Origin: Planctomycetota bacterium
GTDB lineage: Bacteria > Planctomycetota > UBA1135
DNA length: 33,188 bases
Reading direction: 5' to 3'
Assembly: GCA_045047305.1 (NCBI GenBank)
Contig: JASFYO010000009.1
Span: 1-33,188, forward strand
A program made the translations under genes and the position numbers. A model generated the notes under the pieces. That model was not told the origin of the DNA. It was given only the letters and a program-made list of their open reading frames with translations, and made no database searches. Every line of letters begins with the position of its first letter. The stretch's first letter is position 1. Positions 6,524-20,815 of this stretch are shown piece by piece.

Positions 6524-6532
6524 AATCTATCA
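6524..6532 (-). promoter_or_regulatory. Putative extended -10 (TGaTAGATT), 6 nt before the ATG at 6517
   Basis: Minus strand reads TGA-TAGATT-aatggc-ATG. Confidence 0.5.
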
Positions 6533-7927
6533 GGGATTTCGGAAATGCGCGATTGCTGGGTCGGATTCTTCTTCAGAGGTTTTCGGAGCTTCAAACAGGT
6601 GCAGCCGGCGGAAGAGCAGAAGGATGGCTAGGACCTTGAGAATGTTGCCGACATTGAGTGCCCACCAAATGCCGGCGGCGCCAAATCCGAGCCCCGCGGA
6701 AAACCACCAAGCGATTGGAATTCGTACAAAGTTTCCAGCAATGCTGACATAGGCCATTTGCAAAGTGCGCCCGGCGCCGGTCATGATCTGCTGCAAAGTG
6801 GAATAGGCGGCCGTAGCAGCTTGTGTAAAAGCGACAATCGCTAGATACAAGGCGGCTTCATCCAAGACATCCGGATCCTCGGTAAAGAAGGAGGCAAGTT
6901 CACGGCCATAGAGCAGGAATATGGCGGCGGTGAACAGGGCAAATCCAATGGATAAGCCAAGGCAGCTCATGGCTCCACGTTTTGCGCCGAGGTAGTCCTT
7001 GGCGCCAAGGCGTCGGCCAACAATACTGGAGGCCGCCATCGCGGGGCCCATCATGCCGCAATAACTGACAGATTCTAAGCCGTTGAATCCAACGGCAAGT
7101 CCAGCTTGAACATGGGCACCAAGTGGCGCCACGCTGGTTTTCATAATGGCGAGGAAGCAACCGGAATAAGCCGCGTGCGAAAACCCAACTGGGACACCAA
7201 TCCGAACGATGCGTTTGAGTTCTTCCCAGTCAAAGGTTTTGCGTAGGAAACCGCCGAGCCCAAACCATTGCTTTAAGGCCAAGATCCCGAGTAGTGCACA
7301 GAACCCGCGAGAGATTCCCGTGCTCCAAGCTGCGCCTTCCATGCCCATGGCTGGGAATCCCCACCATCCGTAAATCATCGCGGGATTGAGCACAGCGTTT
7401 AGGGCTACCGATAAGAAGGACAGGAGCATTGGCATGACTGTATTTCCTAAACCCAGAAAAACGCTGTCAATCAGTGGTTTAAAGCCAATTAAAGGAAGCA
7501 CGATGTAGATAGTGCTGAGGTATTCCTCTGCGAAAACGGCCGGGGCGCCACTGCCGCCAGCTACTTTGACCCAAAAGGGTGTCGTTAGCCACCCTAATGC
7601 GCCAATCACACTAAACCACAGCAATCCCGTACGACAGGCGGTGCCGATAGTGCGTTCCACATGTTCGTTTTGCCCGGATCCAGTGTAGAAGGCGACGCGC
7701 GCTAAAACTCCGCTGGTGATAATTGATAAAAACGAAAAGTTGAGGATCAACATAAACGTTGTTAATCCCATCGCGGCTTGAGCGTCGGGGCCAAGGTCGC
7801 CAATCCAAAACTGATCGTTCACGCGATAGCCGGCGTGTAAAAGAAAGGACAGCGTGATCGGCCACGATAGCCGGAAGGCCTCGCGTAAACTCTCGCCGCG
7901 ACTCTTGGAGTGAGCGAGAGGGCGCAT
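6530..7927 (-). CDS. MATE family efflux transporter / flippase
   Basis: About 12 TM helices with two-fold internal repeat; RLSWPI, DQFWIGDLG, GLGNTVMPM, GFPAMGMEGAAWST, GAGRT. ATG 7927 preferred over TTG 7942. Confidence 0.9.
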   Translation of the reverse strand: MRPLAHSKSRGESLREAFRLSWPITLSFLLHAGYRVNDQFWIGDLGPDAQAAMGLTTFMLILNFSFLSIITSGVLARVAFYTGSGQNEHVERTIGTACRTGLLWFSVIGALGWLTTPFWVKVAGGSGAPAVFAEEYLSTIYIVLPLIGFKPLIDSVFLGLGNTVMPMLLSFLSVALNAVLNPAMIYGWWGFPAMGMEGAAWSTGISRGFCALLGILALKQWFGLGGFLRKTFDWEELKRIVRIGVPVGFSHAAYSGCFLAIMKTSVAPLGAHVQAGLAVGFNGLESVSYCGMMGPAMAASSIVGRRLGAKDYLGAKRGAMSCLGLSIGFALFTAAIFLLYGRELASFFTEDPDVLDEAALYLAIVAFTQAATAAYSTLQQIMTGAGRTLQMAYVSIAGNFVRIPIAWWFSAGLGFGAAGIWWALNVGNILKVLAILLLFRRLHLFEAPKTSEEESDPAIAHFRNP

Positions 7928-7949
7928 GTTGCTTGGACCCAAAGTCAGC

Positions 7950-9020
7950 TCAATCCTGGTTTAGACTGCGCATCGGGATGGTGACGAAACTTTGCGTTTC
8001 CACGTGCACGGTGGCGGAGCGCATCACTTTGCGATAAGGACCACCATAAGCAGAGAAACTGTAATCGCCGGGGGGAAGGGAGGTAAACACCACCGTTCCA
8101 TCTTCACGCAACGCTAGGCTCTCGGAAAATCCCAGGCCTTTTTCGGTGCGCGTTGCCTGTACCCGCATCGTGCGCCAATCCTTTTGCGCGGTCTGCGGAC
8201 CATCAAGGAAGTTGACAGTCACGGTCGCGCTCCCCATTTTCTTCACCGTGAATTCCACATAAGCTTCCGGTGCCTCACGGCTAATCCCGATAACCTTCAG
8301 CTCGCTCAATGGGTTGCGGAAAGATCCCACGTAAATGTTGAATTCTCCATCGCGTAAGCCGCTGATGCGGAAGCGCCCATCTTTGTCGGTGGAGGCGGTG
8401 AGGGGTACTTGACTAGCGCCTGGTCGGTGACTGCGGAAAACGGCTGCAACCGGAATATGCGCCACAGGCTCGCCCTGCCCATCCCTTACATAGCCAACCA
8501 CGCTGGCTGCGGGGACCACCGCTACTGCGAAGAAGTGGTTGTTTTGCTCTACGGACAGAGTGAGCAATAAGTTTTGGTCGAGGCACTCTGGAGCAGTGAG
8601 CTTGAGCGTGTATTCACCGAATGGGATTCGTTCGAAGGTAAAAGTCGGGTCTTCTTCGGATGCCGGTGCGGTGGCGATGGCGTCTCCACCCGCCTGTGGA
8701 GTGAGGCTGAGGGTGATCGAGCGCGGCCAAATCACCCAGTTTGCAGCGACCACGCGTCCACCGATGACCCCAAACTTTGGTTGATAGCTGAGGGCGTCGC
8801 GGTTGGGGCGTGGCGGCAAGTCCACCGGTTCCAAAACTGCTCCTTTGGTCAGAGAGTCAGAATCCTGCTTCGAGGAATTCGGTAATCGGGGAACGTCGAC
8901 CTGGTTTGGGCCGATGCTTGAGTCAGAGCTGAGTACCCAAAACGCCGCCAGCGCCAGCATCAAGAGCAGGCCAGGAACCCACAGGTTGGTTCTTCCTCGG
9001 TTGGTGGTACGAAAGGGCAT
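7950..9020 (-). CDS. Membrane-anchored protein with carboxypeptidase-regulatory-like beta-sandwich repeats
   Basis: N-terminal TM; GYVRDGQGEPVAHIPV...TDKDGRFRISGLRDGEF, PFGEYTL and LPPGDYSF repeats. Confidence 0.75.
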   Translation of the reverse strand: MPFRTTNRGRTNLWVPGLLLMLALAAFWVLSSDSSIGPNQVDVPRLPNSSKQDSDSLTKGAVLEPVDLPPRPNRDALSYQPKFGVIGGRVVAANWVIWPRSITLSLTPQAGGDAIATAPASEEDPTFTFERIPFGEYTLKLTAPECLDQNLLLTLSVEQNNHFFAVAVVPAASVVGYVRDGQGEPVAHIPVAAVFRSHRPGASQVPLTASTDKDGRFRISGLRDGEFNIYVGSFRNPLSELKVIGISREAPEAYVEFTVKKMGSATVTVNFLDGPQTAQKDWRTMRVQATRTEKGLGFSESLALREDGTVVFTSLPPGDYSFSAYGGPYRKVMRSATVHVETQSFVTIPMRSLNQD

Positions 9021-9026
9021 CACGCG

Positions 9027-9066: not shown

Positions 9067-11562
9067 ATGATTCGCCGCCCTCTTCTTGTTATGGCACTGG
9101 CCCTGTTCGCAGGTTCCGCCACATCTTCCTTGCACGCCCAGACTTCCGACTCTGGCACCGCCACCACCACCAGTGCACAGGGGCAAGCCCAGCGTGTTGT
9201 CGTTCTTGGCATGGACGGCATGGATGCTGAAATGGCCCGTGATTGGATGGACGCCGGGGAGCTGCCTAACTTCCAACGCCTACGCGACGGAGGTACTTTT
9301 GCTCCGCTGATGCCGGCGAACCCCGCACAATCCCCTGTTTCTTGGGCGACCTTGAACACTGGAGTCAACCCTGGCAAGCACGGCATCTTCGACTTTGTGG
9401 GTATTAGTCGTAAGTATGGAAAACGGGAACCAGTGCGACTGAGTGCCGGTTTCCAAAAGGTCAAATACTTCACAGCTGAGGAGCTAGGGTTGACCCCGGC
9501 CCCTGGCGGCTCCAACTATATGTTGATGGGTGGTGGAGTGGTGTTGGGGCTGCTCTTGATGCTTGGTATTGGGCGTGTGAACAAGCCAGGTGGTTTGATT
9601 TTGGGCTTGGCCGTTGCTGGAGGAGCTGTGTTCTTCGGACAGGGTGAAGCTAGCGTGCTGCCAGCGACCTTCAAGGATTACGAAAGCTTGAACCACGCCA
9701 AAACTTATTGGGAATCCTTGGATGAAAATGGAATCCAATTTCGCGGTCAAGGCACGATTGTGGCTTACCCAACCCAAGAGCTTAAGAATGGAAAGCTGAT
9801 TGCCGGTCTCGGTGCCCCAGATGCAAAGGGCGGCTTGAACTCCAGCGCGATTTACACCACGGCTAAGGAGCGGAAGGGACGGCGTCGGAATTACGCTGCA
9901 CTTCCAGCAGCCGTAATCGAAGATGCGGAAGACTTTACCCTTTCGGCGGGCAAAGGTGCTGGTACGACCCGGGTATTTGAGTTCGTTAGCGAAGGCGGAC
10001 TTTTAAAGTCTTATCTTTATGGGCCAGCAAACTCCATTCTGAAGGCAAGCCTCCTTTCCGAACGGGAAAAGTTAATGGAAAGTGGCAGCGACCCAGTTCG
10101 CTTGAAGGAGGTCATCGCGTTGGTCGGTGATGGACATCGCAAGTATGGCAACGCAAGCTTGCTCAACACTTCGGTTCCTATCACGGCCAAATGGAATAAA
10201 GGTGAGTCGGTGGAGCTTTCAGTTGCTGGCGTAGCTCAAAACATTGCCCTCAACAAGTGGAGCGATTTTTACCAGGTGGAATTCCATTGGCACCCTTCTT
10301 ATAGCACTTGGGCTTTGGTTCGCTTTTGGGTGGAGGAGCGCGATGGAGAGCTTGAGGTTTTCGCTTCTCCGTTGCAGATTGACCCGCAAAATCCAACTCC
10401 AGGCAGTCGCATTTGCTGGCCAGCAAACTTCGCCGCCGACATCGAATCACGGATTGGGCGGTTTGAGACCCTTGGTTGGGCATGTCAGACCCACGCAGTC
10501 AAAGATGCAGAACTTTCCGACGACGCCTTTTTGGCCGACATCGAGTTTACTCTTGGTTGGCGTACCAAAATGTTGAAAGACGCGGTCGAGCAAGGTGATT
10601 GGAAAGTGTTGTTCCACTTTTTCGGAACCCCAGATCGCATCTGTCACATGCTGATGCGTCACATGGATCCACTCCACCCGCAGTACGATGAAGCCGAAGC
10701 CAACCGCATCGTGCATTACTTCGGCCAGGATTTTGCGCTAAAGGACAGTGCGCTCGTCATCTATAAGGAGATGGACAAGATCGTTGGCTATGTGCTCGAC
10801 GATGTCCTCAATGAGGAAGATGTCTTGATGATTGTCTCCGACCACGGCTTCGATAGTTTTCGTCGCCAGGTGGACCTGAACGCTTGGTTGGTGCAGGAAG
10901 GATTCATGTCGCTAGCGAATACTACAGCTCTTGGTATTCCGAAAACCGCATCGGACATGAGCAAGAGCACCTTGAAGTTCGTCGACTGGCGTGGCTCCAA
11001 GGCTTACTCGGTTGCGATTGGTAAGATTTACCTCAACATTAAGGGCCGTGAAGCCAAAGGCGTCGTAGCCCAAGAAGATGTGGATTCGGTTCTGGCCGAT
11101 ATCACCGAGCGCCTTTACGCCATGACCGATCCCGATTCTGGCGAGAAGGTGGTGAAGAAGGTTTACTTGCGCGATGAAATCTACAGTGGGCCTTATGTGC
11201 ATCGCTCGAAATCAGGTGACACCGAGGGCGCGGCTGAAATCACCATCGACTTCCATTCGGGTTACCGCGCTTCTTGGACTGTGACGGGCGGCGGCATCAC
11301 TTTGAAAGATGGCGTGAATGAAGACGGTGACACCATTGCGGTGGCTGGCGATTACATTTATGACAACGATTACGCTTGGTCTGGCGACCACTGTGGTGTT
11401 GACATCATGGAGGTTCAGGGCATCTTCTTTAGCAACAAACCACTCAGTCTGCCTTCCGGTGATACGTGGTACGACGCCACCCATCTGGCGCCAACCGTGT
11501 TGTCCTTGCAGGGCGTTGCGATCCCTGAAAATTACGATCGCGCCCCACTACATTTGAAGTAG
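9067..11562 (+). CDS. Exported alkaline-phosphatase-superfamily (NPP/COG3379-like) enzyme with internal hydrophobic hairpin
   Basis: Sec signal (...SSLHA|Q); VLGMDGMD, PAQSPVSWATLNTGVNPGKHGIFDF, PDRICH, VSDHGF, WSGDHC. Two hydrophobic segments at aa ~151-191. Confidence 0.85.
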   Translation: MIRRPLLVMALALFAGSATSSLHAQTSDSGTATTTSAQGQAQRVVVLGMDGMDAEMARDWMDAGELPNFQRLRDGGTFAPLMPANPAQSPVSWATLNTGVNPGKHGIFDFVGISRKYGKREPVRLSAGFQKVKYFTAEELGLTPAPGGSNYMLMGGGVVLGLLLMLGIGRVNKPGGLILGLAVAGGAVFFGQGEASVLPATFKDYESLNHAKTYWESLDENGIQFRGQGTIVAYPTQELKNGKLIAGLGAPDAKGGLNSSAIYTTAKERKGRRRNYAALPAAVIEDAEDFTLSAGKGAGTTRVFEFVSEGGLLKSYLYGPANSILKASLLSEREKLMESGSDPVRLKEVIALVGDGHRKYGNASLLNTSVPITAKWNKGESVELSVAGVAQNIALNKWSDFYQVEFHWHPSYSTWALVRFWVEERDGELEVFASPLQIDPQNPTPGSRICWPANFAADIESRIGRFETLGWACQTHAVKDAELSDDAFLADIEFTLGWRTKMLKDAVEQGDWKVLFHFFGTPDRICHMLMRHMDPLHPQYDEAEANRIVHYFGQDFALKDSALVIYKEMDKIVGYVLDDVLNEEDVLMIVSDHGFDSFRRQVDLNAWLVQEGFMSLANTTALGIPKTASDMSKSTLKFVDWRGSKAYSVAIGKIYLNIKGREAKGVVAQEDVDSVLADITERLYAMTDPDSGEKVVKKVYLRDEIYSGPYVHRSKSGDTEGAAEITIDFHSGYRASWTVTGGGITLKDGVNEDGDTIAVAGDYIYDNDYAWSGDHCGVDIMEVQGIFFSNKPLSLPSGDTWYDATHLAPTVLSLQGVAIPENYDRAPLHLK

Positions 11563-11600: not shown

Positions 11601-12104
11601 TCAGTCGCCGGCGTAGCCGAGGTCGCTGAGGTCAGCACCTGGGCCTTGGCTACGAATCGCTTCAAAGGCAGCAGCGGGCTTGCCGAGTTTTTCCTTGAGG
11701 TCTGGAAAGGTGGCCAGAGTGTAGGCCACAAGTTCATCGCCGACGTCGGCCATGGCAGAGATGGCTGCGGTATCGCAGAGTTTCAGCAGTGCATCGCCCG
11801 TGAGTTGATCTGAAAAGTCCGACTTGAGGCGCTCAAACGCGGCCATCGCACCGTTTTCGTCACCTTCCTTGAGGTAAAGGTTGACTAGCGATACCAGCGC
11901 ATCGCCCTGAAGCTTTGCATCGCCGTTTTCAGCAGCGTACTCATAGCCAGCTTGCGCGGTCTCCGGATTTCCAGAGGCGGCAGCGGCGTCGGCCTGGTCC
12001 ATAGCGGCAATCGGATCGGTGAAGGTAATCGATTCTTTGGAATCGCCGGAGCAGGCAGTTAAGCCAAGAATCAGGGCAAGGGGGAGGGTGTGAATGAGAC
12101 GCAT
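11601..12104 (-). CDS. Helical (TPR-like) lipoprotein with C-terminal LxxLGY tail
   Basis: Lipobox LTAC; Ala-rich helical body; ends GPGADLSDLGYAGD*. Confidence 0.75.
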   Translation of the reverse strand: MRLIHTLPLALILGLTACSGDSKESITFTDPIAAMDQADAAAASGNPETAQAGYEYAAENGDAKLQGDALVSLVNLYLKEGDENGAMAAFERLKSDFSDQLTGDALLKLCDTAAISAMADVGDELVAYTLATFPDLKEKLGKPAAAFEAIRSQGPGADLSDLGYAGD

Positions 12105-12307
12105 GATGTGTGTCGGGCCGGAGAGCTCCGGCGTGGAATCTTACTCTTTACGGCATGAAGAGGCTCTTTTAGTTTACTTTCTGCTCACAGATGCGGCCGA
12201 AAAACAGGGAATTGCCTATAGAAAGCGGCCAAACACTCCGATAAGGCTACGATTGGAGCCAAAAAGCACTCCTGTGAGGTATCTATTCGCACTCCAATCG
12301 GTTACCC

Positions 12308-12316
12308 TGCTATCCT
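12308..12316 (+). promoter_or_regulatory. Putative extended -10 (TGcTATCCT) for the RHH-sat operon
   Basis: TG-n-TAnnnT ending 18 nt before ATG 12335, in a divergent intergenic region. Confidence 0.4.
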
Positions 12317-12334
12317 TCTGATCCTCTTTGGACC

Positions 12335-12553
12335 ATGCAAAAAGAAACCCGCGTCACTGTTAAAATCCCGCGTCCGCTTTACCGGCGGATTCAGCAGGTG
12401 ATTGAGAATACCGGTTTCTCGTCTCCCACGGAATTCATCGTCTACGTCCTCCGCGACCTGATGAGCGAAGTGGAGTCTAAAGAAGAAAAGGAATTTAGCC
12501 CCGAAGAATTGCAGGCGATTACGCAGAAGTTGAAGAACCTCGGCTACCTGTAA
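12335..12553 (+). CDS. Ribbon-helix-helix (CopG-like) protein with C-terminal LxxLGY tail
   Basis: Beta-strand VTVKIP, then helices (LYRRIQQVI / GFSSPTEFIVYVLR), acidic linker, ends KLKNLGYL*. Confidence 0.8.
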   Translation: MQKETRVTVKIPRPLYRRIQQVIENTGFSSPTEFIVYVLRDLMSEVESKEEKEFSPEELQAITQKLKNLGYL

Positions 12554-12588
12554 ACCCTTTTAACCAAACCATTTAACCCTTCAGAATC

Positions 12589-13740
12589 ATGATTGCTCCG
12601 CACGGTGGAAAACTGATCAACCGCGTCGTCGAAGGTGGCGAGCGCGACTCCTTGCTCGCAAAGGCTGCATCTTTGCCAGTCCTCACCCTCAACTCCCGCG
12701 AAGCCAGCGATCTTGAAATGATCGCCATTGGCGCCATGAGCCCTTTGGAGGGTTTCATGGGTGAAGCCGATTACAACGGCGTCGTGGAAAACATGCACCT
12801 CGCATCCGGTACGGCATGGCCACTTCCTGTGGTTTTTGCTGCAAAAGATGGCGAAACCGCAGCTGCTGGTTCTGAGTACGCTCTGAAAGGCGAAGACGGA
12901 AGCATCTACGGCATCATTGCCGTCGACAGCGTCTACAGCCCAGACAAGAAGAACGAGCTAGAAAAGTGCTACCAGGGCGACGAAGAGCACCCAGCATGGG
13001 GCTACCTCGCATCCATTGGTGACACCTATGTAGGTGGTCAAATCACGGTGGCAAACCTGCCTGCTTACGAGAAGCACAATGAGTACCGCCTCACCCCAGT
13101 GCAGACCCGCGCTGCTTTTGAGGAGAAAGGTTGGGATAGCATCGTCGCTTTCCAAACTCGTAACCCAATCCACCGCGCTCACGAATACTTGACCAAAGTT
13201 GCGCTGGAGCAGACCGATGGCCTCCTGATTCACCCATTGGTAGGTGACACCAAGGCCGATGACATCCCTTCCGATGTCCGCATGAAGTGCTACCACGCAC
13301 TGCTGAACAAGTACTACCCACTCGATCGCACCATGCTCGGCGTTTACCCGCAGGCCATGCGTTACGGCGGCCCACGCGAGGCAATCCTGCACGCGCTTTG
13401 CCGTCAGAACTACGGTTGTACGCACATCATCATCGGTCGCGATCACGCTGGCGTCGGTTCGTACTACGGCACCTTCGATGCGCAACAGATTTTCGAGCAG
13501 TTTGCCGATGGAGAGATTCTCATCGAGACTCTTCTCTTTGAGCACGCGTTCTACTGTAAGTTGACCGGCGGCATGGCTTCGACCAAGTCCAGTCCAGCCA
13601 CCAACGACCAGAAAATCTTCCTTTCCGGCACCAAGGTCCGCGAAATGCTCGCAAACGGCGAACGTCCGCCAGCCGAGTTTACGCGTCTGGAAGTCGCCGA
13701 CATTCTGATCGCATCCTACGCCCAACCGGCGCAGGCTTAG
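12589..13740 (+). CDS. sat: Sulfate adenylyltransferase (ATP sulfurylase, Sat type)
   Basis: PHGGKL, SPLEGFM, FQTRNPIHRAHE, MRYGGPREA, IIGRDHAGVG, LSGTKVR. Confidence 0.97.
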   Translation: MIAPHGGKLINRVVEGGERDSLLAKAASLPVLTLNSREASDLEMIAIGAMSPLEGFMGEADYNGVVENMHLASGTAWPLPVVFAAKDGETAAAGSEYALKGEDGSIYGIIAVDSVYSPDKKNELEKCYQGDEEHPAWGYLASIGDTYVGGQITVANLPAYEKHNEYRLTPVQTRAAFEEKGWDSIVAFQTRNPIHRAHEYLTKVALEQTDGLLIHPLVGDTKADDIPSDVRMKCYHALLNKYYPLDRTMLGVYPQAMRYGGPREAILHALCRQNYGCTHIIIGRDHAGVGSYYGTFDAQQIFEQFADGEILIETLLFEHAFYCKLTGGMASTKSSPATNDQKIFLSGTKVREMLANGERPPAEFTRLEVADILIASYAQPAQA

Positions 13741-13770
13741 TTCCTAATAAACATCGCAAGCTAGAGATTC

Positions 13771-14682
13771 ATGTTTGGATTCGGTAAAAAACGCGAGAAC
13801 AACCATCTGTTCATCATCACCCTCGACTCGTGCCGCTTTGACTCGTTCATGGCGGCCGAGCCGGAGAACATCGCCAAGTTGTGCGGTGGTCTTAGCAATG
13901 TTGAGAAGCGTTATTCCTACGCTGGATGGACGGCTCCGTCGCACTACAACCTCCTGACCGGCCTGGTGCCGCACGTGAGTCCTACCGAGGTCTACGCTTC
14001 GGAGTACTACAAAGAGGATCTCTATAAGTTCAAGGATCGCCTGGGTGTGGAAGACGCTGGCTTTGAAGCCATGATTCCACACCTTTGGCTACCGGCGTAC
14101 ATGAAGAAGAAGGGCTACGAGACCCATGCATTGGTTTCGTTGCCGGTTCTGAACCCTGCAACCGGTATCAACCGCGACTTCGACACTTTCAAACTCATGC
14201 CAAAGCACAACGACATGTTGGCTATGTTGGATGACATGGAAGCGCACAAGAAGCGTGATTCTAAGGGTCTAAAGGGCAATACGCCGCAGTTCTACTTGAT
14301 GAACGTCGGTGAGACCCACTACCCATACGGCTTGCCCGATGAGGACAAGAACGATTTGCCGCACATCTCTGGTGTGAACGGCATCTTCAAGAAGCTGGAT
14401 AAGCAGATTGGTGAAGATGGTGTCCTGATCTCGGACCAAGAGTCCGGGGACTTCATGGATGCAGAACTCATCGAGAAGTGTCGCCAGCGTCAAATCAACA
14501 CGGTGAGGTACCTCGATCAAGAGGTCTTCCCACGGTTCTACGACCTGCTACCGAAAGATAGTTGGGTCATCGTCACCGCTGACCACGGTGAACTGTTCGG
14601 TGAAGGTGGCTATTTTGGCCACGGCCCGATCATGCACGAAAAGTGTTTCGAGGTTCCCTTCCTCGAAGGAAAACTCAAATAA
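13771..14682 (+). CDS. Cytoplasmic sulfatase-fold protein with Thr at the nucleophile position (no formylglycine motif)
   Basis: ITLDSCR, WTAPSH (in place of C/S-x-P-x-R), ETHYPY, TADHGELFGE, GHG, EVPF; no signal peptide. Confidence 0.8.
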   Translation: MFGFGKKRENNHLFIITLDSCRFDSFMAAEPENIAKLCGGLSNVEKRYSYAGWTAPSHYNLLTGLVPHVSPTEVYASEYYKEDLYKFKDRLGVEDAGFEAMIPHLWLPAYMKKKGYETHALVSLPVLNPATGINRDFDTFKLMPKHNDMLAMLDDMEAHKKRDSKGLKGNTPQFYLMNVGETHYPYGLPDEDKNDLPHISGVNGIFKKLDKQIGEDGVLISDQESGDFMDAELIEKCRQRQINTVRYLDQEVFPRFYDLLPKDSWVIVTADHGELFGEGGYFGHGPIMHEKCFEVPFLEGKLK

Positions 14683-14712
14683 TCATCTCCGTTTAACAAA
14701 AAGATTAGACCC

Positions 14713-15264
14713 ATGTCTGACCACAAAGGATTCGTACTCTGGTTCACCGGCCTCTCTGGCTCTGGTAAGTCCACTCTCTCCCGCATGATCGAAGGCGAGT
14801 TGCGTAAGCGCGACTGCAACGTCGAAGTGCTCGATGGCGATGAAGTTCGCGAGAACCTCAGCAAAGGCCTCGGTTTCTCCAAGGAGGACCGTGACACCAA
14901 CGTCCGTCGTATCGGCTATGTTGCCAAGCTTCTGAGCCGTAACGGCGCCATCTGCATCACTGCTGCCATCTCTCCGTATAAGGATGTGCGCGACCAATGC
15001 CGTGCGATGAATCGTCACTTCGTTGAGATTTACGCAGATTGCTCGATTGAGGAGCTCACCCGTCGTGACGTCAAAGGCCTCTACGCCAAGGCGCTTTCCG
15101 GCGAGATCAAGAACTTCACCGGCATCTCTGACCCTTACGAGGCTCCTGAGAACGCGGAAGTCACCATCAACTCCGAGACTCAGTCGGAAGAAGAGTCGCT
15201 CAAGGCCATCATGGATTACCTTGAGGGTCAGGGTTTTATCCCTGCAGTAGCAGCAAACGCATAG
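14713..15264 (+). CDS. cysC: Adenylyl-sulfate (APS) kinase
   Basis: WFTGLSGSGKST P-loop, LDGDEVR, LGFSKEDR, AISPY, RDVKGLY, FTGISDPYEAP. Confidence 0.97.
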   Translation: MSDHKGFVLWFTGLSGSGKSTLSRMIEGELRKRDCNVEVLDGDEVRENLSKGLGFSKEDRDTNVRRIGYVAKLLSRNGAICITAAISPYKDVRDQCRAMNRHFVEIYADCSIEELTRRDVKGLYAKALSGEIKNFTGISDPYEAPENAEVTINSETQSEEESLKAIMDYLEGQGFIPAVAANA

Positions 15265-15277
15265 ATTGTTTCCCTTG

Positions 15278-15314
15278 ACTGAGGGGAAAGGGAAAAAACC
15301 CCTTTCCCCTCAGT
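15278..15314 (+). terminator. Perfect 15-bp stem-loop after cysC (terminator or mRNA-stabilising hairpin)
   Basis: ACTGAGGGGAAAGGG-aaaaaac-CCCTTTCCCCTCAGT followed by TCTGTTTC. Confidence 0.75.
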
Positions 15315-15344
15315 TCTGTTTCACGCATAATTCGCCCCTTCGCC

Positions 15345-17510
15345 ATGAAGCGGTCCCGCAGATTCCTTCTCCCCCTCGCTGTCCTTTTCGCATGGCTCAG
15401 CGCCCCCGATCCCGCCTCGGCCTACATTGGCCCAGGAGCGGGTTTCGCATTTTTGTCAGGCGGCTTGGTCCTTATTGGATCGCTGTTCCTGGCGGTTGGC
15501 ATCTTGCTGATCTATCCACTGAAGATGGTCTACCGGATTGCCACTGGCGCCGGAAAGATTAAGGGCGAAACCAAACGCCTGGTCATCATTGGATTCGACG
15601 GCATGGACCCGCGCCTGGCGCAGCGGTTCATGGACGAAGGTCGCATGCCGAACATGAAGGCGCTTGCGGAGGAGGGAGGCTTCTCTCCATTGCAAACGGC
15701 GTATCCGTCTATGTCGCCGGTTGCATGGTCGTCGTTCTCCACTGGAGTCGATGCCTCGCGCCACAATATCTTTGATTTCATTACACGTGACCCGTGTACT
15801 TATATGCCGATTCTTTCCAGCACTGAGATCACTTCGGCAGAGAAAGCCTTGGTGAAGATTGGCAATCTGGAATTGTTCAAGCGTCCTAGCTCAAGCATCA
15901 GGTTGTTGCGCAAAGGTATTCCTTGGTGGAAGACTTTGGGCGATAAGAAGATTTTCTCCAACATCATCCGTGTGCCGATTACCTTCCCACCGGAAGAACA
16001 TCACGGCGTATTGTTGAGTGGCATGTGTGTTCCCGACTTGAAGGGAACTCAAGGCAGTTTCACTTTTTGGACTAGCGATGAAACCCTGACCGGTCCGGAT
16101 GCCGGCGGCGATGTCTTGCTGGTTGGAAAAAATGGCAACGCCTACCGCTGTCCGATTACCGGCCCGACCGATCCTTCGCAGGAACAGGCCACGCCGATGC
16201 GCGTACCGATGAAGGTCGAGGTCCTTGTGGAAGGCGAGAAGCTTCGCCTTAACATTGGGGCCAAGGGAGATGAGCAAATCGTTGACCTCGGAGTGAAGGA
16301 TTACTCGGATTGGATTACGCTCGAGTTTAAGGCGGCCAAAGGCAAAGCCAAGGTCACCGGAATCGCGCGTTTCTATTGCATGGGCACCAGCCCTGAGTTC
16401 GGCCTCTACATGACGCCGATTCAGATTGATCCATCCAATCCCGCGATGCCGATTTCGCATCCCACGGTTTACTCGATTTACCTGGCGAAGAAACATGGTC
16501 CATTTTCTACGCTTGGACTTGCCGAAGATACTTGGGCCTTGAACGAGCGCGTCATCGATGAGGAAGCGTTTTGGAAGCAAGCGCTGAACATCTGGGATGA
16601 GCGGCGTAAGCAGTTGTTCGATGCGCTGCAAAACACGCCGAAGGGCTCCATCGTCTGTGTCTTTGATGGCACGGACCGCGTGTCGCACATGTTCCATCGT
16701 TACTTGGATGAAAGTCACCCTGCAAACGCAGGCAAGGATACCGAGTGGGGCAAGGATAAGGTCGCCGAGATCTATTCCATCGCCGATGGCTTGGTTGCCG
16801 ATGTACGCAAAAAGCTAAATCCGAAGAAGGATCGCTTAATGATCATCTCGGACCATGGTTTCTGTCAGTTTAAGCGCGGGGTCAACCTCAACGCTTGGTT
16901 GCGCGACAATGGATACTTGGTGCTGAAATCCGATGCACCGGTCGATGACGCAAGTGGCAAGCAGACTTCACGTGATTGGCTGATGGATGTCGACTGGCAT
17001 AAGACCAAGGCTTTTGCACTTGGACTCACCGGCATGTTCATTAACCGCAAAGCGCGCGAGCGTGATGGCATTGTGAAAGAGGGCGCCGAGTTGGAAGCCT
17101 TGAAAGCAGAAATCGTAGAGAAGCTTTCCGCCCTGAAGGATCCAAAGGATGGCGAGTTGATCTTCAAGGAGGTATTCGACGCCGGCAAGATCTTTACTGG
17201 CCCATATGTCTTCCAGGCCCCAGACTTGTTTATGGGCTATAAGCGCGGTTACCGCAACTCGTGGGACTGTGCTACCGGTGCTTGCCCGCCGGAAGTATTT
17301 TCGGATAACACCAAGTCGTGGTCGGGTGACCACTGCATTGACCCGCGTGAGGTTCCAGGAGTCATTTTCTCGGATCGTCCGCTGAACACTGACACCCCAA
17401 ACCTGATGGACCTCGGTCCAACCGCGCTGCGCATGTTCGGAGTCGACGTGCCGAAATATATGCAGGGGCAACCTCTGTATGGCCCTCGCAACGAAGAGGT
17501 GAAGTCATGA
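15345..17510 (+). CDS. Membrane-anchored alkaline-phosphatase-superfamily (COG3379-like) enzyme; signal peptide + YIGPG + TM
   Basis: Signal ending ASA|YIGPGAG, then a TM helix and a basic stretch; IIGFDGMD, PSMSPVAWSSFSTG, TDRVSH, ISDHGF, WSGDHC. Confidence 0.85.
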   Translation: MKRSRRFLLPLAVLFAWLSAPDPASAYIGPGAGFAFLSGGLVLIGSLFLAVGILLIYPLKMVYRIATGAGKIKGETKRLVIIGFDGMDPRLAQRFMDEGRMPNMKALAEEGGFSPLQTAYPSMSPVAWSSFSTGVDASRHNIFDFITRDPCTYMPILSSTEITSAEKALVKIGNLELFKRPSSSIRLLRKGIPWWKTLGDKKIFSNIIRVPITFPPEEHHGVLLSGMCVPDLKGTQGSFTFWTSDETLTGPDAGGDVLLVGKNGNAYRCPITGPTDPSQEQATPMRVPMKVEVLVEGEKLRLNIGAKGDEQIVDLGVKDYSDWITLEFKAAKGKAKVTGIARFYCMGTSPEFGLYMTPIQIDPSNPAMPISHPTVYSIYLAKKHGPFSTLGLAEDTWALNERVIDEEAFWKQALNIWDERRKQLFDALQNTPKGSIVCVFDGTDRVSHMFHRYLDESHPANAGKDTEWGKDKVAEIYSIADGLVADVRKKLNPKKDRLMIISDHGFCQFKRGVNLNAWLRDNGYLVLKSDAPVDDASGKQTSRDWLMDVDWHKTKAFALGLTGMFINRKARERDGIVKEGAELEALKAEIVEKLSALKDPKDGELIFKEVFDAGKIFTGPYVFQAPDLFMGYKRGYRNSWDCATGACPPEVFSDNTKSWSGDHCIDPREVPGVIFSDRPLNTDTPNLMDLGPTALRMFGVDVPKYMQGQPLYGPRNEEVKS

Positions 17511-19651
17511 AGCGCACGCTAAAACTTGCTGCTGTATTGCTTGTTAGTCTCAGCCTTTTGGGTTGTGGCGAAAAGCAGTCGGAAACTCGCGTCGTAGTGT
17601 TCGGTGTCGATGGTCTCGACCCAGAAATGCTGCAGGAGCGTATCGATCGTGGCATGATGCCAAACTTCAAGAAGTTACTGGATAACGGCGCAACCTTTGC
17701 AAAGCTGCAGACTTCTTGGCCTCCGCAATCTCCGGTGGCTTGGTCGAACTTCATCACTGGAGTGAATCCGGGTAAGCATGGTTTGTATGACTTCATTCAT
17801 GCCGACTACGCGAAGAAGAACTACGGAGTGAAGACCTCGATGGCGGATACCAGTCCTGTTGGCATGGATGTCACTTTGTTTGGCTACGACGTCCCGTTGA
17901 CTGGCGGCAAGACTACCAGCACACGCAAATTCCCAGCTTTCTGGGAGACTCTTTCTGATCAAGGCGTACCCACATACGTGCACCGTATGCCTGCAAGTTA
18001 TCCGCTTACGCAAACGAATGCCACGGTTTACCCCGACATGGGCACGCCTGATTTGGTCGGGGCAGCTTCGGGTATCTCTTACCTTTGGACCGAAAAACCA
18101 TGGCAGGGCAAAGCTCTGAGTGGTGAGTCTTATCGTGTGGAGGTCATAGAATTGAATCGCCGCCGCGATGATATGTGGATTCAATGGACCAAACTGTATG
18201 GTCCACCGGAAACCATTCTCAACGTCGATGCCCTCAAGGCTCAAATCCATGAAGCATCTGATGCGGGCGACAACGAAACCGCCAACGCTTTGCAAAAGGA
18301 AATCGAGCGCAAGCAAGAAGTCTCAGTGCCGATTGCTTTGATGGTTGATAATACCGGCGAAGCTCCACAGCTTGCTGTGCAAATTGATCACCAGTACGCC
18401 ACTGCTGCCTTAGGGGAGTGGAGTAACTGGGTTAAGGTGGAGTTCTCGGTGATGGGCGGCTTGATGCCAATCCCCGGCTACACCCGTTTCCGCTTTTTGT
18501 CGGCCGCGCCTTTCGAGGTTTACGCACTTCCAATTCAGTTCGACCCTTTTGCGCCGGCGGCTGAGATTTCCATGCCACCGGAAGCCAGTGCTGAATTAGC
18601 GGAATCCATCGGCCCCTACATCGTGCAAGGATTTGCCGATGCTTATAAGTCCTACAAGGCTGGCTTGCTCGACACCTCGGGATTCATCAACGAGTCCGAC
18701 ATGGTGTTGGCAGAGCGCACCAAGATGATGCACTACGGTCTCGACCAAATCGAGGAAACCGGCGGGCTCTTGTTCCTCTACACCGGCTCGCTCGACATGC
18801 GCTGTCACATGTTGTGGCACACCTCGGATAAGGCTCACCCACACCAAGAACCAGCGGGGGAGTACCTCGGCGTTCCTTACGATGAGCAGATTGACCGTAT
18901 TTACTCGCAGGTCGACATCATGCTTGGCGAAATGGTGAGTCGCATCGAGAAGATGGAGTTAGAAACGGGCAGCAAGATTGAGTTGATTGTGATGTCGGAC
19001 CACGGTTTTGCGCCCTTCCGGCGCAAGATGCATATCAACGATTGGTTAATCCAAGAGAAGTACTTGGTGTTAAAGGAAGGCGTTACGGAAACCCACGATC
19101 TTACATTGAAACTAGATGCCGATGGCCATCCAGAGCCTGGCACTGGTCCTGTGGATTGGAGTAAAACCAGGGCCTATTGTGTCGGTTTCAACGGCATCAT
19201 TTTGAATCGTAAAGGCCGCGAAGCGGAAGGCATTGTCGAAGACTCTGAGATAGAAGCCCTTCTCGCGGAAATCGCCGGCAAATTATTGGCGCTGGAGGAT
19301 GGCGGTGTTTCAGTCCTTACCCGAGTGCTTCCTGCCACGGAAGTCTTCCACGGCCCAGCCGGAATCATGAAGAATGCCCCGGACTTGCAGCTTGGGTTTA
19401 ACGTCGGTTTTGGCGCATCCGATGAATGTGCAACGGGCGGTGTCGTCGGCGAGGGTGAATTCCTCGTGGATAACGATAGCCGCTGGTCAGGTTCTCACCT
19501 GATGGACCCCGAGCTTGTACGGGGTACGATTATTTCTACGTCTGGAAAATCCTTGTCGAAGGACCCGACGCTAGAAGATATCACCGCAACCCTCTACAGT
19601 CTGTTCAACGTCACTCCCCCTGAGGGCCTGGACGGACGCCCTCTCTACTAA
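17507..19651 (+). CDS. Lipoprotein alkaline-phosphatase-superfamily (COG3379-like) enzyme
   Basis: Lipobox LLGC; VFGVDGLD, PPQSPVAWSNFITGVNPGKHGLYDF, LDMRCH, MSDHGF, WSGSH. ATGA overlap with the previous gene. Confidence 0.85.
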   Translation: MKRTLKLAAVLLVSLSLLGCGEKQSETRVVVFGVDGLDPEMLQERIDRGMMPNFKKLLDNGATFAKLQTSWPPQSPVAWSNFITGVNPGKHGLYDFIHADYAKKNYGVKTSMADTSPVGMDVTLFGYDVPLTGGKTTSTRKFPAFWETLSDQGVPTYVHRMPASYPLTQTNATVYPDMGTPDLVGAASGISYLWTEKPWQGKALSGESYRVEVIELNRRRDDMWIQWTKLYGPPETILNVDALKAQIHEASDAGDNETANALQKEIERKQEVSVPIALMVDNTGEAPQLAVQIDHQYATAALGEWSNWVKVEFSVMGGLMPIPGYTRFRFLSAAPFEVYALPIQFDPFAPAAEISMPPEASAELAESIGPYIVQGFADAYKSYKAGLLDTSGFINESDMVLAERTKMMHYGLDQIEETGGLLFLYTGSLDMRCHMLWHTSDKAHPHQEPAGEYLGVPYDEQIDRIYSQVDIMLGEMVSRIEKMELETGSKIELIVMSDHGFAPFRRKMHINDWLIQEKYLVLKEGVTETHDLTLKLDADGHPEPGTGPVDWSKTRAYCVGFNGIILNRKGREAEGIVEDSEIEALLAEIAGKLLALEDGGVSVLTRVLPATEVFHGPAGIMKNAPDLQLGFNVGFGASDECATGGVVGEGEFLVDNDSRWSGSHLMDPELVRGTIISTSGKSLSKDPTLEDITATLYSLFNVTPPEGLDGRPLY

Positions 19652-19672
19652 CCTCCAGAATCGGAGAACATC

Positions 19673-19870
19673 ATGTTTGGTGGAAATAAACTAAAGATCA
19701 ACAAGGACATCATCGAGCGCTGCAAAAAGTGTTCGGAGGTCGCCGGCTACTCTTCCGTGGAGGAGTTCGTCGAGCACATTCTCGAGAAGGAGTTGAAAGG
19801 CATTGAAGGTGCCGGCACTTCTGACGAGGCGATTACCGAAAGCCTGCGTGGCCTCGGTTACATCAGCTAA
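19673..19870 (+). CDS. Small RHH-like protein with C-terminal LxxLGY tail (paralog of 12335-12553)
   Basis: GGAGA SD-like sequence upstream; AGYSSVEEFVEHIL aligns with TGFSSPTEFIVYVL; ends SLRGLGYIS*. Confidence 0.8.
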   Translation: MFGGNKLKINKDIIERCKKCSEVAGYSSVEEFVEHILEKELKGIEGAGTSDEAITESLRGLGYIS

Positions 19871-19900: not shown

Positions 19901-20815
19901 ATGAAACAACGAATCATCGTCATTGGCATCTGCGCACTTCTAGTCGCGGTTGGCGTTCTTGCGCCAGCGGTGATGAATGCAATCTTCGATGTCTTCGACT
20001 TAGCCTTCGGCTGGGCCGGCCCATTCGCGGTCGTCACCATTGTTTCCGGATTGGTTGGGGTGTTGTTCATCCTTGCCTTCCCGCATGTTTCCTCCCAAGA
20101 GGGGATCAAGTCGGTGAAGTCAAAGATCAGCTACAACCTGGTTGCGATTCGATTGTTCCAGGACGATCTCCCAACCGTCATGCGTTCCTTGGGCGCCACG
20201 CTCTCATGGAACTTTGCTTACTTGGGTTTGAACATGCTACCGATGGTGGTGCTTGCTGCGCCATTCATGATTGTGTGGTTCCAGCTCAACGCGCTTTATG
20301 CTTATCAACCAGTCCATGCTGGTTCCGATCAGATGGTGGTGGTGGAGTTAAGTGAAGCCGTGAGTAAGCCTCAAGATGTGGTCGTCACCATGCCTTCGGG
20401 GGAGGTGCTTCAATCCCGCGTCAATCTTGCTTCACGCCACGATGGCACCAACCTCATTCCGGCGACCGTGCTGGTGCGCTACACCCCGAGTGTTGCAGGT
20501 AGCCAAGAGTTGACCTTCAGTTACGCCGGGGAAAAGGTCACTAAAACGGTAGAGGTCGATACCGATCCACGCCGTTTGTCGCGTGTCCGCACCTCCGACC
20601 CGATGGGCGGTTTTATTGCCCAGACCGATCCAATCGTGCTTTACGGTGATCCTATTCTTCCGTCTAGTTCCTTCGTGAGCAACGTCACCGTGGATTACGC
20701 CGCAGCACCACTTGGCTTTCTTGATGGTGGGGAAATGTCGATCATGATTTGGTTCGTGGTGATGTCGATGGTGGTTGGCTTTGCACTAAAAGGCCCTCTT
20801 GGGGTTGAGATTTAG
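19901..20815 (+). CDS. Membrane protein, DUF106/EMC3/TMCO1 (Oxa1-superfamily)-like, with an extracytoplasmic beta-rich insert
   Basis: TM, then SQEGIKSVK helical linker, then LPMVVLAAPF TM, a ~140-aa beta-rich domain, and a final TM WFVVMSMVVGFALKGPLGV. Family assignment is by eye. Confidence 0.55.
   Translation: MKQRIIVIGICALLVAVGVLAPAVMNAIFDVFDLAFGWAGPFAVVTIVSGLVGVLFILAFPHVSSQEGIKSVKSKISYNLVAIRLFQDDLPTVMRSLGATLSWNFAYLGLNMLPMVVLAAPFMIVWFQLNALYAYQPVHAGSDQMVVVELSEAVSKPQDVVVTMPSGEVLQSRVNLASRHDGTNLIPATVLVRYTPSVAGSQELTFSYAGEKVTKTVEVDTDPRRLSRVRTSDPMGGFIAQTDPIVLYGDPILPSSSFVSNVTVDYAAAPLGFLDGGEMSIMIWFVVMSMVVGFALKGPLGVEI

Follow-up and report, generated by a model that had tools for sequence, protein, structure and literature searches.

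Why should three small proteins of one sulfate-activation locus, predicted to act on either side of a membrane, end in the same LxxLGY motif? The locus lies in a 33,188-nucleotide stretch of DNA from a Planctomycetota bacterium, hereafter the window (features in Table 1). An earlier note on its sequence had proposed that the Tyr of this tag transiently carries a sulfuryl group, in parallel with the Tyr motif of DltX. Our analysis of sequence and gene context points, with slightly more confidence than doubt, to a sulfotyrosine relay that would lead from cytoplasmic PAPS to acceptors beyond the cytoplasmic membrane or at the cell surface. Its parts would be the three tagged small proteins, a membrane-helix Tyr and the insertase-like protein MEM. 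Such a relay is likely undescribed; literature searches, most subscription papers being outside their scope, returned no description of the tag, of a Y-x-G-P-G peptide or of the relay.

Table 1. Coordinates of the features of the locus within the window.
Feature	Position	Strand	Description
AP1	9067..11562	+	NPP/COG3379-type AP-fold enzyme, predicted periplasmic; PF01663 97 bits
TPR-like lipoprotein	11601..12104	-	lipobox LTAC18; C-terminal end LSDLGYAGD
Lipoprotein tag LSDLGY	11613..11630	-	LxxLGY
RHH1	12335..12553	+	ribbon-helix-helix protein, first gene of the operon; C-terminal end LKNLGYL
RHH1 tag LKNLGY	12530..12547	+	LxxLGY
sat (ATP sulfurylase)	12589..13740	+	TIGR00339 429.5 bits, above cut-off
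Sulfatase-fold enzyme 13771	13771..14682	+	predicted cytoplasmic; PF00884 38.6 bits
cysC (APS kinase)	14713..15264	+	TIGR00455 above cut-off; no tail in the window
AP2	15345..17510	+	signal peptide, cleavage ASA/Y, one membrane helix, basic residues, COG3379-type domain
AP2 Y-I-G-P-G-A-G and membrane helix	15423..15518	+	second conserved tyrosine (Y27)
AP3	17507..19651	+	lipoprotein (LLGC20), COG3379-type enzyme, predicted periplasmic; no tail
RHH2	19673..19870	+	RHH-like protein; C-terminal end LRGLGYIS
RHH2 tag LRGLGY	19844..19861	+	LxxLGY
MEM	19901..20815	+	membrane protein, remote DUF106/Ylp1 (Oxa1/YidC superfamily) homologue with an inserted filamin-like Ig domain

The three open reading frames and their tails were found as the earlier note had described them, and its observation that LxxLGY is missing from the C-termini of all four AP-fold enzymes in the window (AP1, AP2, AP3 and enzyme 13771) was borne out by the sequences. 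Among 2656 non-overlapping ORFs of the genome, 7 have the motif within six residues of the stop codon, where the genome's internal LxxLGY rate predicts 0.6. The full six-frame list contains eight such ORFs: these three and five AP-superfamily enzymes. LxxLG followed by an aromatic residue is a frequent helix cap. At internal LxxLG sites of the genome, the next residue is Phe 46 times versus Tyr 27 times, and this ratio, compared with the strict use of Tyr in the tag, rules out a generic helix cap as the whole story. Indeed, the exchange of Tyr for Phe in orthologs, which the earlier note had raised, was seen in none of 293 distinct RHH1, RHH2 and lipoprotein homologues. The Tyr is kept in 131 of 133 distinct RHH1 homologues, the two untailed matches being NikR-like false hits, and in 196/198 when RHH1 and RHH2 are taken together. 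For RHH2, LGY is present in 65 out of 65 distinct homologues, and G60, L61, G62 and Y63 are invariant over 49 alignment rows. Loss of the tail from lipoprotein orthologs, also raised in that note, is uncommon (tail kept in 86 of 95 distinct homologues). The lipoprotein gene diverges from the operon, and its homologues keep both this position and the tail down to 27% identity. A profile built from RHH sequences without their tails gave, among its best 150 representatives, 91 with LxxLGY and none with F or W at the Tyr position; 58 had no tag, with a clear frameshift signature in just 4 of them.

RHH1 matched CdrS (17.3 bits, cut-off 100) and NikR (16.2 bits, cut-off 111) weakly, and RHH2 gave no match. 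RHH1 shows the beta-strand pattern VTVKIP, and RHH homologues are named CopG/RHH by their sources. TPR matches of the lipoprotein were weak, both in Pfam and in Atlas. No RHH relative was found in the viral contigs or plasmids searched, and scanning the stretch between the diverging lipoprotein gene and operon for sigma-70 sites gave none. We propose RHH1 as a cytoplasmic carrier, possibly also a regulator, and the lipoprotein as a periplasmic sulfate carrier.

The enzymes themselves were then placed by family. AP1 to AP3 matched PF01663 with 86-105 bits (cut-off 23) and retain the NPP-type two-metal ligand pattern (G[FMV]DG, SPVxW, DxxxH, SDHG, SG[DS]H); the AP-fold profile matches proteins named 'predicted AlkP superfamily phosphohydrolase/phosphomutase'. 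Enzyme 13771 carries the Thr motif WTAPSH and is only distantly related to the STM4013/SEN3800 hydrolases (NF038075, 57.3 bits, cut-off 250); it is a candidate loader of sulfate from PAPS onto Tyr. Neither the four window enzymes nor the motifs read for tailed paralogues include the formylglycine motif [CS]-x-P-x-R. The genome's only formylglycine-type sulfatase (C24, CTPTR) bears no tag, nor do two exported Thr-motif enzymes (C3 and C36).

Outside the window the tag is found in cis, as the earlier note had stated for many sulfatase-like and COG3379 proteins. Eighteen of 23 AP-superfamily proteins end in the relaxed motif xxx[LM]GY, counted up to 27 residues from the stop, all with Tyr. Among in-cis homologues the tag Tyr is present in 119/120 and 116/120. 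In 15 paralogues of 21-30% identity, the tag Gly and Tyr are among just seven invariant columns, along with the Asp/His ligands. AP2 aligns with an in-cis tailed paralogue and stops before its linker and tail; in an AlphaFold2 model of such a paralogue, the tag helix is predicted to be ordered (pLDDT 88, 81) and the linker has low confidence (76, 65). The tag is also fused to CysC in 14 of 86 distinct related loci. Its presence there follows the neighbouring gene: CysC is tagged in 13/13 loci with a 460-aa COG3379 enzyme, in 0/66 with a 13771-type enzyme and in 1/7 with neither, so that across related loci the 13771-type enzyme alternates with the 460-aa enzyme plus tailed CysC. In three loci the tag occurs on a PF01507 protein read as CysD; no PF01507 gene was found in this genome, which is 87.7% complete. 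Overall, within the sets examined, the LxxLGY tag is confined to sulfate-handling proteins.

Two further occurrences lend independent support to the aryl-sulfate idea of the earlier note, whose scheme is partly supported. The tag precedes an arylsulfate sulfotransferase (ASST) domain in 22 of 30 loci, and the sulfate donors of ASSTs are phenolic (PMC12297285, PMC4257720). In addition, the C-termini of Halobacterium salinarum Agl30 (HLEDLGYL) and Agl31 (LEELGYT), read from published primers, carry the tag (primers as given in PMC11980604). The ASST of our genome (C55) gave no significant PDB sequence match, and its assignment therefore relies on Pfam (95.5 and 60.6 bits, above cut-off) and on its His motifs. 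Four ordinary Sulfotransfer_3 genes of the genome could also consume PAPS.

The DltX parallel drawn by the earlier note was misplaced: the DltX/PatA motif, as described in the available text of PMC12148441, is a C-terminal FXYXXF on a membrane helix, whereas here we find LxxLGY and an N-terminal Y[IVL]GPG. We would regard Y27 of AP2, which that note had missed, as the closer counterpart. A Tyr precedes [IV]GPGAG in 62 of 62 AP2 ORFs, and topology read from the sequence predicts a cytoplasmic location for the COG3379-type domain. The same helix exists as a free microprotein in 13 other loci, the Tyr of the Y[IVL]GPG motif being present in every one. Of 15 regions with short-peptide matches, five were left out of the count: two that hold the complete AP2 block, read as split or fused (L330, L331), a split AP2 (L327), a weak match without neighbours (L329) and one at a contig edge (L332). 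An ASST gene adjoins the free microprotein in 13/13 loci and a Sulfotransfer_3 gene, encoding a PAPS-dependent sulfotransferase, in 12/13. A DUF106-like gene was detected in six of the 13, always in the order ASST-peptide-MEM-sulfotransferase; AP3 occupies in our locus the place of this ASST. The ASSTs next to the free peptide are mostly untagged (tag 1/14). In many of the free peptides the N-tail is short and a signal peptide is absent. The best solved relatives of the neighbouring sulfotransferase include tyrosylprotein sulfotransferases, over the PAPS-binding loop only. We propose that the Y-I-G-P-G helix of AP2 is a transmembrane sulfate shuttle.

The partner in this crossing would be MEM. 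Its profile found MJ0480 (5c8j) as the best match among 177,635 sequences (E 7.9e-6), over TM1, the coiled coil and TM2, with a weak match at TM3; a narrower profile gave E 0.017. PF01956 was detected in one of 36 members of the MEM family, below cut-off (E 0.082), and in 17% of the members of a related Atlas cluster. The model of MEM (pLDDT 90) has a helix order that fits TM1, coiled coil, TM2 and then TM3, and two fold searches with it returned lists filled by the Ig domain and generic helical hairpins, with no Oxa1 protein. MEM is probably a remote DUF106/YidC homologue, the Oxa1 link resting on one profile match. A canonical YidC is encoded elsewhere in the genome (C10), making MEM an additional protein. 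Weak MEM homologues adjoin PPDK-like genes in four loci, showing that the family is not confined to sulfate. Y27 of AP2 and MEM are proposed to supply the membrane crossing that was missing from the earlier scheme.

AP2, AP3, RHH2 and MEM form a block in homologous loci, of which RHH2 is a fixed member. Across 301 Planctomycetota genomes, the 41 with a strong MEM match are the same 41 that have the AP2 N-terminus, and all 41 have RHH, these counts being from related genomes used in part to build the profiles. Four genomes that are 93-99% complete (G180, G033, G084, G021) encode exported enzymes with the tail, as well as an AP1-like gene, and gave no match to the AP2 N-terminus or to MEM. Therefore, the AP2/MEM crossing step is not required everywhere. 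A genome-wide comparison of tailed exported enzymes with the block, in which at most 10 candidates were scored, was blurred by ordinary sulfatases; the follow-up spoke against the block as a requirement for these enzymes. AP1, which is found in part only of the related loci, has a signal peptide and an internal two-helix membrane hairpin by topology read from sequence. Since this hairpin contains no conserved Tyr, we discarded it as a candidate for a second crossing.

Several known systems resemble parts of this arrangement. In MBOAT-SGNH shuttles (DltB-DltX-DltD; PatA-PatB), a Tyr of a membrane peptide has been proposed to carry the acyl group from a cytoplasmic donor to an extracytoplasmic enzyme (PMC12148441, available text). 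The predicted topology here likewise puts an invariant, membrane-anchored Tyr (AP2 and free peptides) between cytoplasmic and exported enzymes. However, the cargo would be sulfate instead of acyl, the membrane partner is DUF106/YidC-like, and the proposed soluble tagged carriers on both sides have no equivalent there; none of the 27 window proteins matched MBOAT or SGNH families in Pfam or NCBIfam. In caprazamycin biosynthesis, as described in PMC4257720, the PAPS-dependent Cpz8 produces a phenolic sulfate, which the PAPS-independent ASST Cpz4 then uses as its donor. Members of these two families border the free microprotein at 12 of the 13 loci; the shuttle described for Cpz8/Cpz4 is a small-molecule pyrone, whereas here it would be a membrane-crossing protein tyrosine. 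The window lacks such a pair, both enzymes being encoded elsewhere in the genome, and AP-fold proteins would replace them.

For Agl30 (VNG1056C) and Agl31 (VNG1057C), which are sulfatase-like members of the AP superfamily, a role in glycan sulfation was established by deletion and heterologous expression (PMC11980604, available text). The words PAPS and donor are absent from the main text of that article, whose available part makes no mention of the tag. Compared by fold and tag, the 18 paralogues of our genome likewise combine the AP fold with a C-terminal LxxLGY; the four window enzymes differ by being untagged. The Pyrococcus yayanosii cluster copG-sat-pApase-NPP-cysC, from a genome in which the available text of PMC8268124 reports no identified sulfotransferase or reductase, similarly unites by its description an RHH gene, sat, an NPP-type gene and cysC. 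It has in addition a pAp phosphatase, and the AP2-AP3-RHH2-MEM block is not part of that description. Archaeal Ylp1/DUF106 (MJ0480, PDB 5C8J) belongs to the Oxa1 superfamily according to the accessible part of PMC5868721. Unlike it, MEM has an inserted Ig-like domain, sits in a sulfate operon and is proposed to act in group transfer and not in protein biogenesis only.

Taken together, the relay would probably run as follows, each transfer step being drawn from sequence and gene context. Sat and CysC make PAPS, as follows from their families. Enzyme 13771, or in the other layout the 460-aa COG3379 enzyme, would put sulfate on the Tyr of the RHH tag, giving an aryl sulfate. AP2 would hand it to its own N-terminal Tyr, and MEM would let this short segment switch membrane faces. 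At the outer face, AP3 would remove the sulfate and load the lipoprotein tag, the in-cis tags of exported non-formylglycine 'sulfatases' and the ASST of the genome. In a last step, the tailed enzymes would work as sulfotransferases, with glycans of the cell surface or other acceptors as targets, the genetics for this covering their relatives Agl30 and Agl31. LxxLGY tags would thus be swinging carriers on each side of the membrane and the Y-I-G-P-G helix the crossing, with untagged enzymes serving the tags of other proteins and terminal transferases carrying their own. A Ser/Thr sulfate intermediate would be hard to discharge onto a phenol, which counts against the relay. Predicted as a complex, the catalytic domain of AP2, two Zn and the RHH2 tail scored 0.07 and 0.23 (mark 0.32), values weighed neither way.

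We consider it rather unlikely that the tag is instead a non-covalent docking or active-site-completing peptide, with a Tyr hydroxyl that binds and is not sulfated. In cis, such a peptide would close the site of its own enzyme; in trans, it would tether three kinds of protein to tail-less enzymes: CysC, for PAPS channelling, the RHH regulators, linking transcription with the state of the enzyme, and the lipoprotein. The exact coincidence of tagged CysC with the 460-aa neighbour is tether-like, RHH1 heads the operon with a beta-strand pattern, and the in-cis model predicts an ordered tag. Nevertheless, sharing of one tag by beta-propeller ASSTs and two AP-fold families is unexpected for a fold-specific peptide, ASSTs need a phenolic sulfate donor, and docking leaves unexplained the second invariant Tyr between a PAPS-dependent sulfotransferase and an ASST.

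The Y-x-G-P-G Tyr could also be a sulfated end product or one-way passenger, as a RaxX-like signal or an insertase substrate, MEM being a private insertase or chaperone for AP2 and the LxxLGY tags working separately; we judge this improbable. Oxa1-family proteins are known insertases of simple substrates with short translocated tails (PMC5868721, accessible part), which suits the many free peptides with a short N-tail and no signal peptide; the resemblance of the neighbouring enzyme to tyrosylprotein sulfotransferases over its PAPS-binding loop and the genomes with tailed enzymes lacking AP2/MEM also fit this reading. Yet a periplasm-type ASST adjoins the free peptide more constantly than any other gene, which points to onward transfer of the sulfate, tagged RHH2 is fixed between AP3 and MEM, and a canonical YidC is already present. 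Still less credible is a hydrolytic role of the AP-fold enzymes (in turnover of APS/PAPS/pAp or pyrophosphate, or in sulfate scavenging) or a role in moving phosphoryl or nucleotidyl groups, with the tag a structural helix cap unlinked to sulfate transfer. The two-metal ligands of AP1 to AP3, the pyrophosphate hydrolysis guessed for the P. yayanosii NPP-type gene (PMC8268124, available text) and the PPDK-like neighbours of weak MEM homologues would fit. Against this, glycan sulfation requires the tailed relatives Agl30 and Agl31 and can be conferred by them (PMC11980604), Phe would be tolerated in a helix cap, and the only formylglycine-type sulfatase of the genome is untagged.

Beyond this locus, we regard it as quite possible, if on balance somewhat doubtful, that bacteria and archaea share a PAPS-independent currency: sulfotyrosine on portable LxxLGY tags would cross membranes via a Y-x-G-P-G helix in a repurposed YidC-family groove and be the physiological donor for periplasmic ASSTs, thousands of annotated non-formylglycine 'sulfatases' would be surface sulfotransferases, and RHH tags would read the state of the pool for gene control. 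PAPS synthesis is cytoplasmic, yet many of the enzymes that handle sulfate in these genomes are exported; the sulfotyrosine relay is one testable supply route. It would offer a sulfate donor for Agl30 and Agl31, for which none is named in the available text of PMC11980604. If true, an Oxa1/YidC-family protein would be used outside protein biogenesis, and a sequence rule would separate sulfotransferases from sulfatases among AP-fold proteins, with 18 candidates already in the 2.8 Mb of this one genome.

The three small ORFs and their C-terminal LxxLGY tails were found where the earlier note had placed them, and it was also right that none of the window's four AP-fold enzymes ends in the motif. 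The assembly holding the window (contig C9) comprises 2.83 Mb and is 87.7% complete. LxxLGY lies at most six residues from the stop in 7 of its 2656 non-overlapping ORFs, as compared to 0.6 expected; the full six-frame list contains eight ORFs with the motif near the stop, namely the lipoprotein, RHH1, RHH2 and five AP-superfamily enzymes. Scanning genomes with RHH1 gave 43 complete loci, all with both tag and cysC. Over all gathered loci, the tyrosine is present in 131 of 133 distinct RHH1 sequences, the other two being NikR-like false matches, and in all 65 distinct RHH2 sequences. The earlier note expected lipoprotein homologues to keep the tail and Tyr not to be exchanged for Phe. Indeed, 86 of 95 distinct lipoprotein sequences keep it (exceptions: one second copy with Cys, eight outside the strict pattern), and no Phe occurs among distinct RHH1, RHH2 and lipoprotein homologues. 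Tandem copies of the lipoprotein gene are frequent, and the tag of the second copy is sometimes decayed (QIGCAHD, ETGYGHD). A tail-free RHH profile, designed to avoid selection on the tail, was searched against 1.84 billion representatives. Among the best 150 matches, which were scored, LxxLGY was terminal in 89, internal in two, replaced by LGH in one chimera and absent from 58, with neither Phe nor Trp in the tag position; four of the untagged ones contain a frameshifted tag and many others diverge directly after the RHH domain. A plain helix cap does not explain this retention of Tyr, because within the genome's proteins internal LxxLG precedes Phe (46 cases) more often than Tyr (27 cases).

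Coordinates of the features (window positions unless a contig C or homologous locus L is named; families from Pfam/NCBIfam; topologies of AP1, AP2, AP3 and the sulfatase-fold protein are predictions from sequences and homologues)
Feature	Position (strand)	Description
Pus10-type tRNA pseudouridine synthase catalytic domain	2638-3444 (+)	TIGR01213, 266 bits
MATE transporter	6530-7942 (-)	
Ig protein	7950-9023 (-)	carboxypeptidase-regulatory-like
AP1	9067-11562 (+)	PF01663; signal peptide, internal membrane hairpin
Lipoprotein	11601-12104 (-)	TPR-like; opposite strand to RHH1 operon
RHH1	12335-12553 (+)	
sat	12589-13740 (+)	
Sulfatase-fold protein	13771-14682 (+)	export signal absent by sequence reading
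cysC	14713-15264 (+)	
AP2	15345-17510 (+)	PF01663; signal peptide, YIGPGAG, membrane helix, basic residues
AP3	17507-19651 (+)	PF01663; lipobox
RHH2	19673-19870 (+)	
MEM	19901-20815 (+)	membrane protein; no family assigned
Arylsulfate sulfotransferase (ASST)	C55:10141-11496 (= L010:4142-5497)	lipoprotein; PF14269, 95.5 bits
Exported Thr-motif sulfatase-like enzymes, untagged	C3:10767-12065; C36:43341-45545	
Tagged PF01507 proteins	L102:315-1247; L103:3438-4397; L104:12646-13449	C-terminus QKLRALGYM
Tandem lipoproteins	L011:3619-4689; L012:8744-9813; L020:8737-10006; L031:8744-9842	
Four-gene unit	L255:8749-11353; L256:6117-11165; L257:5703-9449; L318-L326; L328	
Weak MEM homologues beside PPDK_N/PEP-utiliser genes	L248:8696-15423; L249:8464-12174; L250:2521-10909; L251:168-3820	

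The earlier note mentioned the tail in cis on related enzymes. Outside the window, it is present on 18 of 23 AP-superfamily proteins, always with Tyr; the untagged ones are a single formylglycine-type sulfatase (CTPTR) and four others. Fifteen exported tailed paralogues, 21-30% identical to the first, share only seven invariant columns, five from the catalytic core plus the Gly and Tyr of the tag. Homologues of two tailed paralogues carry the tag in 119/120 and 116/120 cases; in 53 of the latter 116 it is internal and links the enzyme to a C-terminal extension, mostly a TPR domain. The sulfatase-like/TPR fusions P0447-P0507, with LxxLGY between the two parts, mirror the TPR-plus-tag lipoprotein. 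The alignment of AP2 with a cytoplasmic paralogue that has the tail covers the entire core and ends before linker and tail. In the AlphaFold2 model of this paralogue (pTM 0.92), the tag helix is ordered (pLDDT 88, 81) and the preceding linker has low confidence (76, 65). The untagged exported enzymes of C3 and C36 are candidate clients, in trans, of the lipoprotein tag.

The tag also moves among sulfate proteins: CysC, a PF01507 protein and ASST. CysC is tagged in 13/13 loci with a 460-residue cytoplasmic COG3379-type enzyme, in 0/66 loci with an enzyme of the 13771-14682 type and in 1/7 with neither. The PF01507 protein adjoining RHH1, presumably CysD, is tagged in three loci, which also contain a cytoplasmic COG3379-type gene and belong to genomes without MEM; no PF01507 gene was found in the 87.7% complete assembly. 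The genome's own ASST carries LQALGY between lipobox and propeller, and a tag precedes the propeller in 22 of 30 ASST loci, this one included, never with Phe. Sulfate donors of ASSTs are phenolic sulfates (PMC12297285, PMC4257720). According to the accessible part of PMC11980604, glycan sulfation by the AP-fold proteins Agl30 and Agl31 was shown by deletion and heterologous expression, and both tolerate a C-terminal affinity tag. Translation of the reverse cloning primers given there yields HLEDLGYL for Agl30 and LEELGYT for Agl31, so that the tag is present on both AP-fold proteins for which glycan sulfation has been shown genetically. A third gene, VNG1063H, ends in KELGYIE; that part of the paper gives it no sulfation role.

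The earlier note proposed the tail tyrosine as a sulfuryl carrier. Its observation stands and the carrier interpretation is partly supported; it missed a proposed membrane step involving AP2 and MEM. The catalytic domain of AP2 is predicted to be cytoplasmic, because basic residues follow its signal peptide, YIGPGAG and membrane helix. Tyr precedes [IV]GPGAG in 62/62 AP2 ORFs. The MEM profile (36 rows) best matched, among PDB entries, the archaeal DUF106 protein MJ0480 (E 7.9e-6; Pfam support weak), which belongs to the Oxa1 superfamily and has a hydrophilic groove (PMC5868721). Fold searches with the MEM model gave mainly matches to its Ig domain and generic helical hairpins. Among 301 Planctomycetota genomes, a strong MEM match was found in 41 and the AP2 N-terminus in the identical 41, which are kin to each other and partly the source of the profiles themselves; RHH was present in 40 by search match and in the last by inspection (a tailed RHH2). 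In three further genomes the helix stands alone as a free microprotein; ten more such loci came from 251 searched genomes of another class, 33 of which had a match. In these 13 loci, Tyr and an adjacent ASST are constant (13/13) and a Sulfotransfer_3 gene is present in 12; our genome has four such genes, all outside the window. A DUF106-like gene was detected in 6/13, in the order ASST-peptide-MEM-sulfotransferase, with a similar ORF seen by eye in a seventh. ASSTs beside the free peptide carry LxxLGY in only 1/14 cases; in two loci, tagged ASSTs stand directly ahead of an AP2-AP3-RHH2-MEM block. The same peptide and MEM thus occur in two settings, flanked by a PAPS-dependent sulfotransferase and an ASST in one and by AP2 and AP3 in the other.

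Sat and CysC make the activated sulfate donor PAPS. From sequence comparisons we favor, with little more than even confidence, a sulfotyrosine relay from cytoplasmic PAPS to surface acceptors. Sulfate would pass from PAPS to the Tyr of the RHH tag, then to the N-terminal Tyr of AP2, whose segment would move with the help of MEM; AP3 would hand it to the lipoprotein and in-cis tags, and these to surface acceptors. Transfer may be direct or run through the active-site Ser/Thr; since Ser sulfate esters are kinetically trapped, the direct route from Tyr to acceptor would be favored. Many close relatives retain the Ig protein and MATE transporter as neighbors of the locus; these two proteins may have to do with the acceptor or with exporting it. 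Also in the window of this bacterial genome is a Pus10-type domain, of a mainly archaeal and eukaryotic family.

Against the relay, tailed enzymes occur together with an AP1-like gene in four genomes (93-99% complete) that lack the AP2 N-terminus and MEM, so that either sulfate is supplied there by a different route or the tags function with no such supply. AP1 is moreover missing from many related loci. Weak MEM homologues also adjoin PPDK-like genes; two of these loci further contain a PQQ-type propeller, and one an NPP gene. These homologues are possibly a phosphate-carrying version of a membrane relay. Docking or regulation by the tag, with no sulfation, appears rather unlikely. We judge it improbable that MEM is a dedicated insertase whose substrate is a sulfated end product; a canonical YidC is encoded elsewhere in the genome. 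Hydrolysis or phosphoryl chemistry as the role of the system itself is very improbable.

The proposed relay resembles in working principle the DltX/PatA tyrosine shuttle (PMC12148441) and Cpz8/Cpz4 two-step sulfation, but belongs to neither, since motif, enzymes and membrane partner all differ. In PMC8268124, the account of an archaeal copG-sat-pApase-NPP-cysC cluster includes no sulfotransferase. A literature search, with most subscription papers outside it, found no paper on the LxxLGY tag, the Y-x-G-P-G peptide or the relay. The recurrent Planctomycetota unit of four genes, encoding ASST, a Y[IVL]GPG membrane microprotein, a DUF106-like protein and a PAPS-dependent sulfotransferase, represents the proposed relay in its simplest form.
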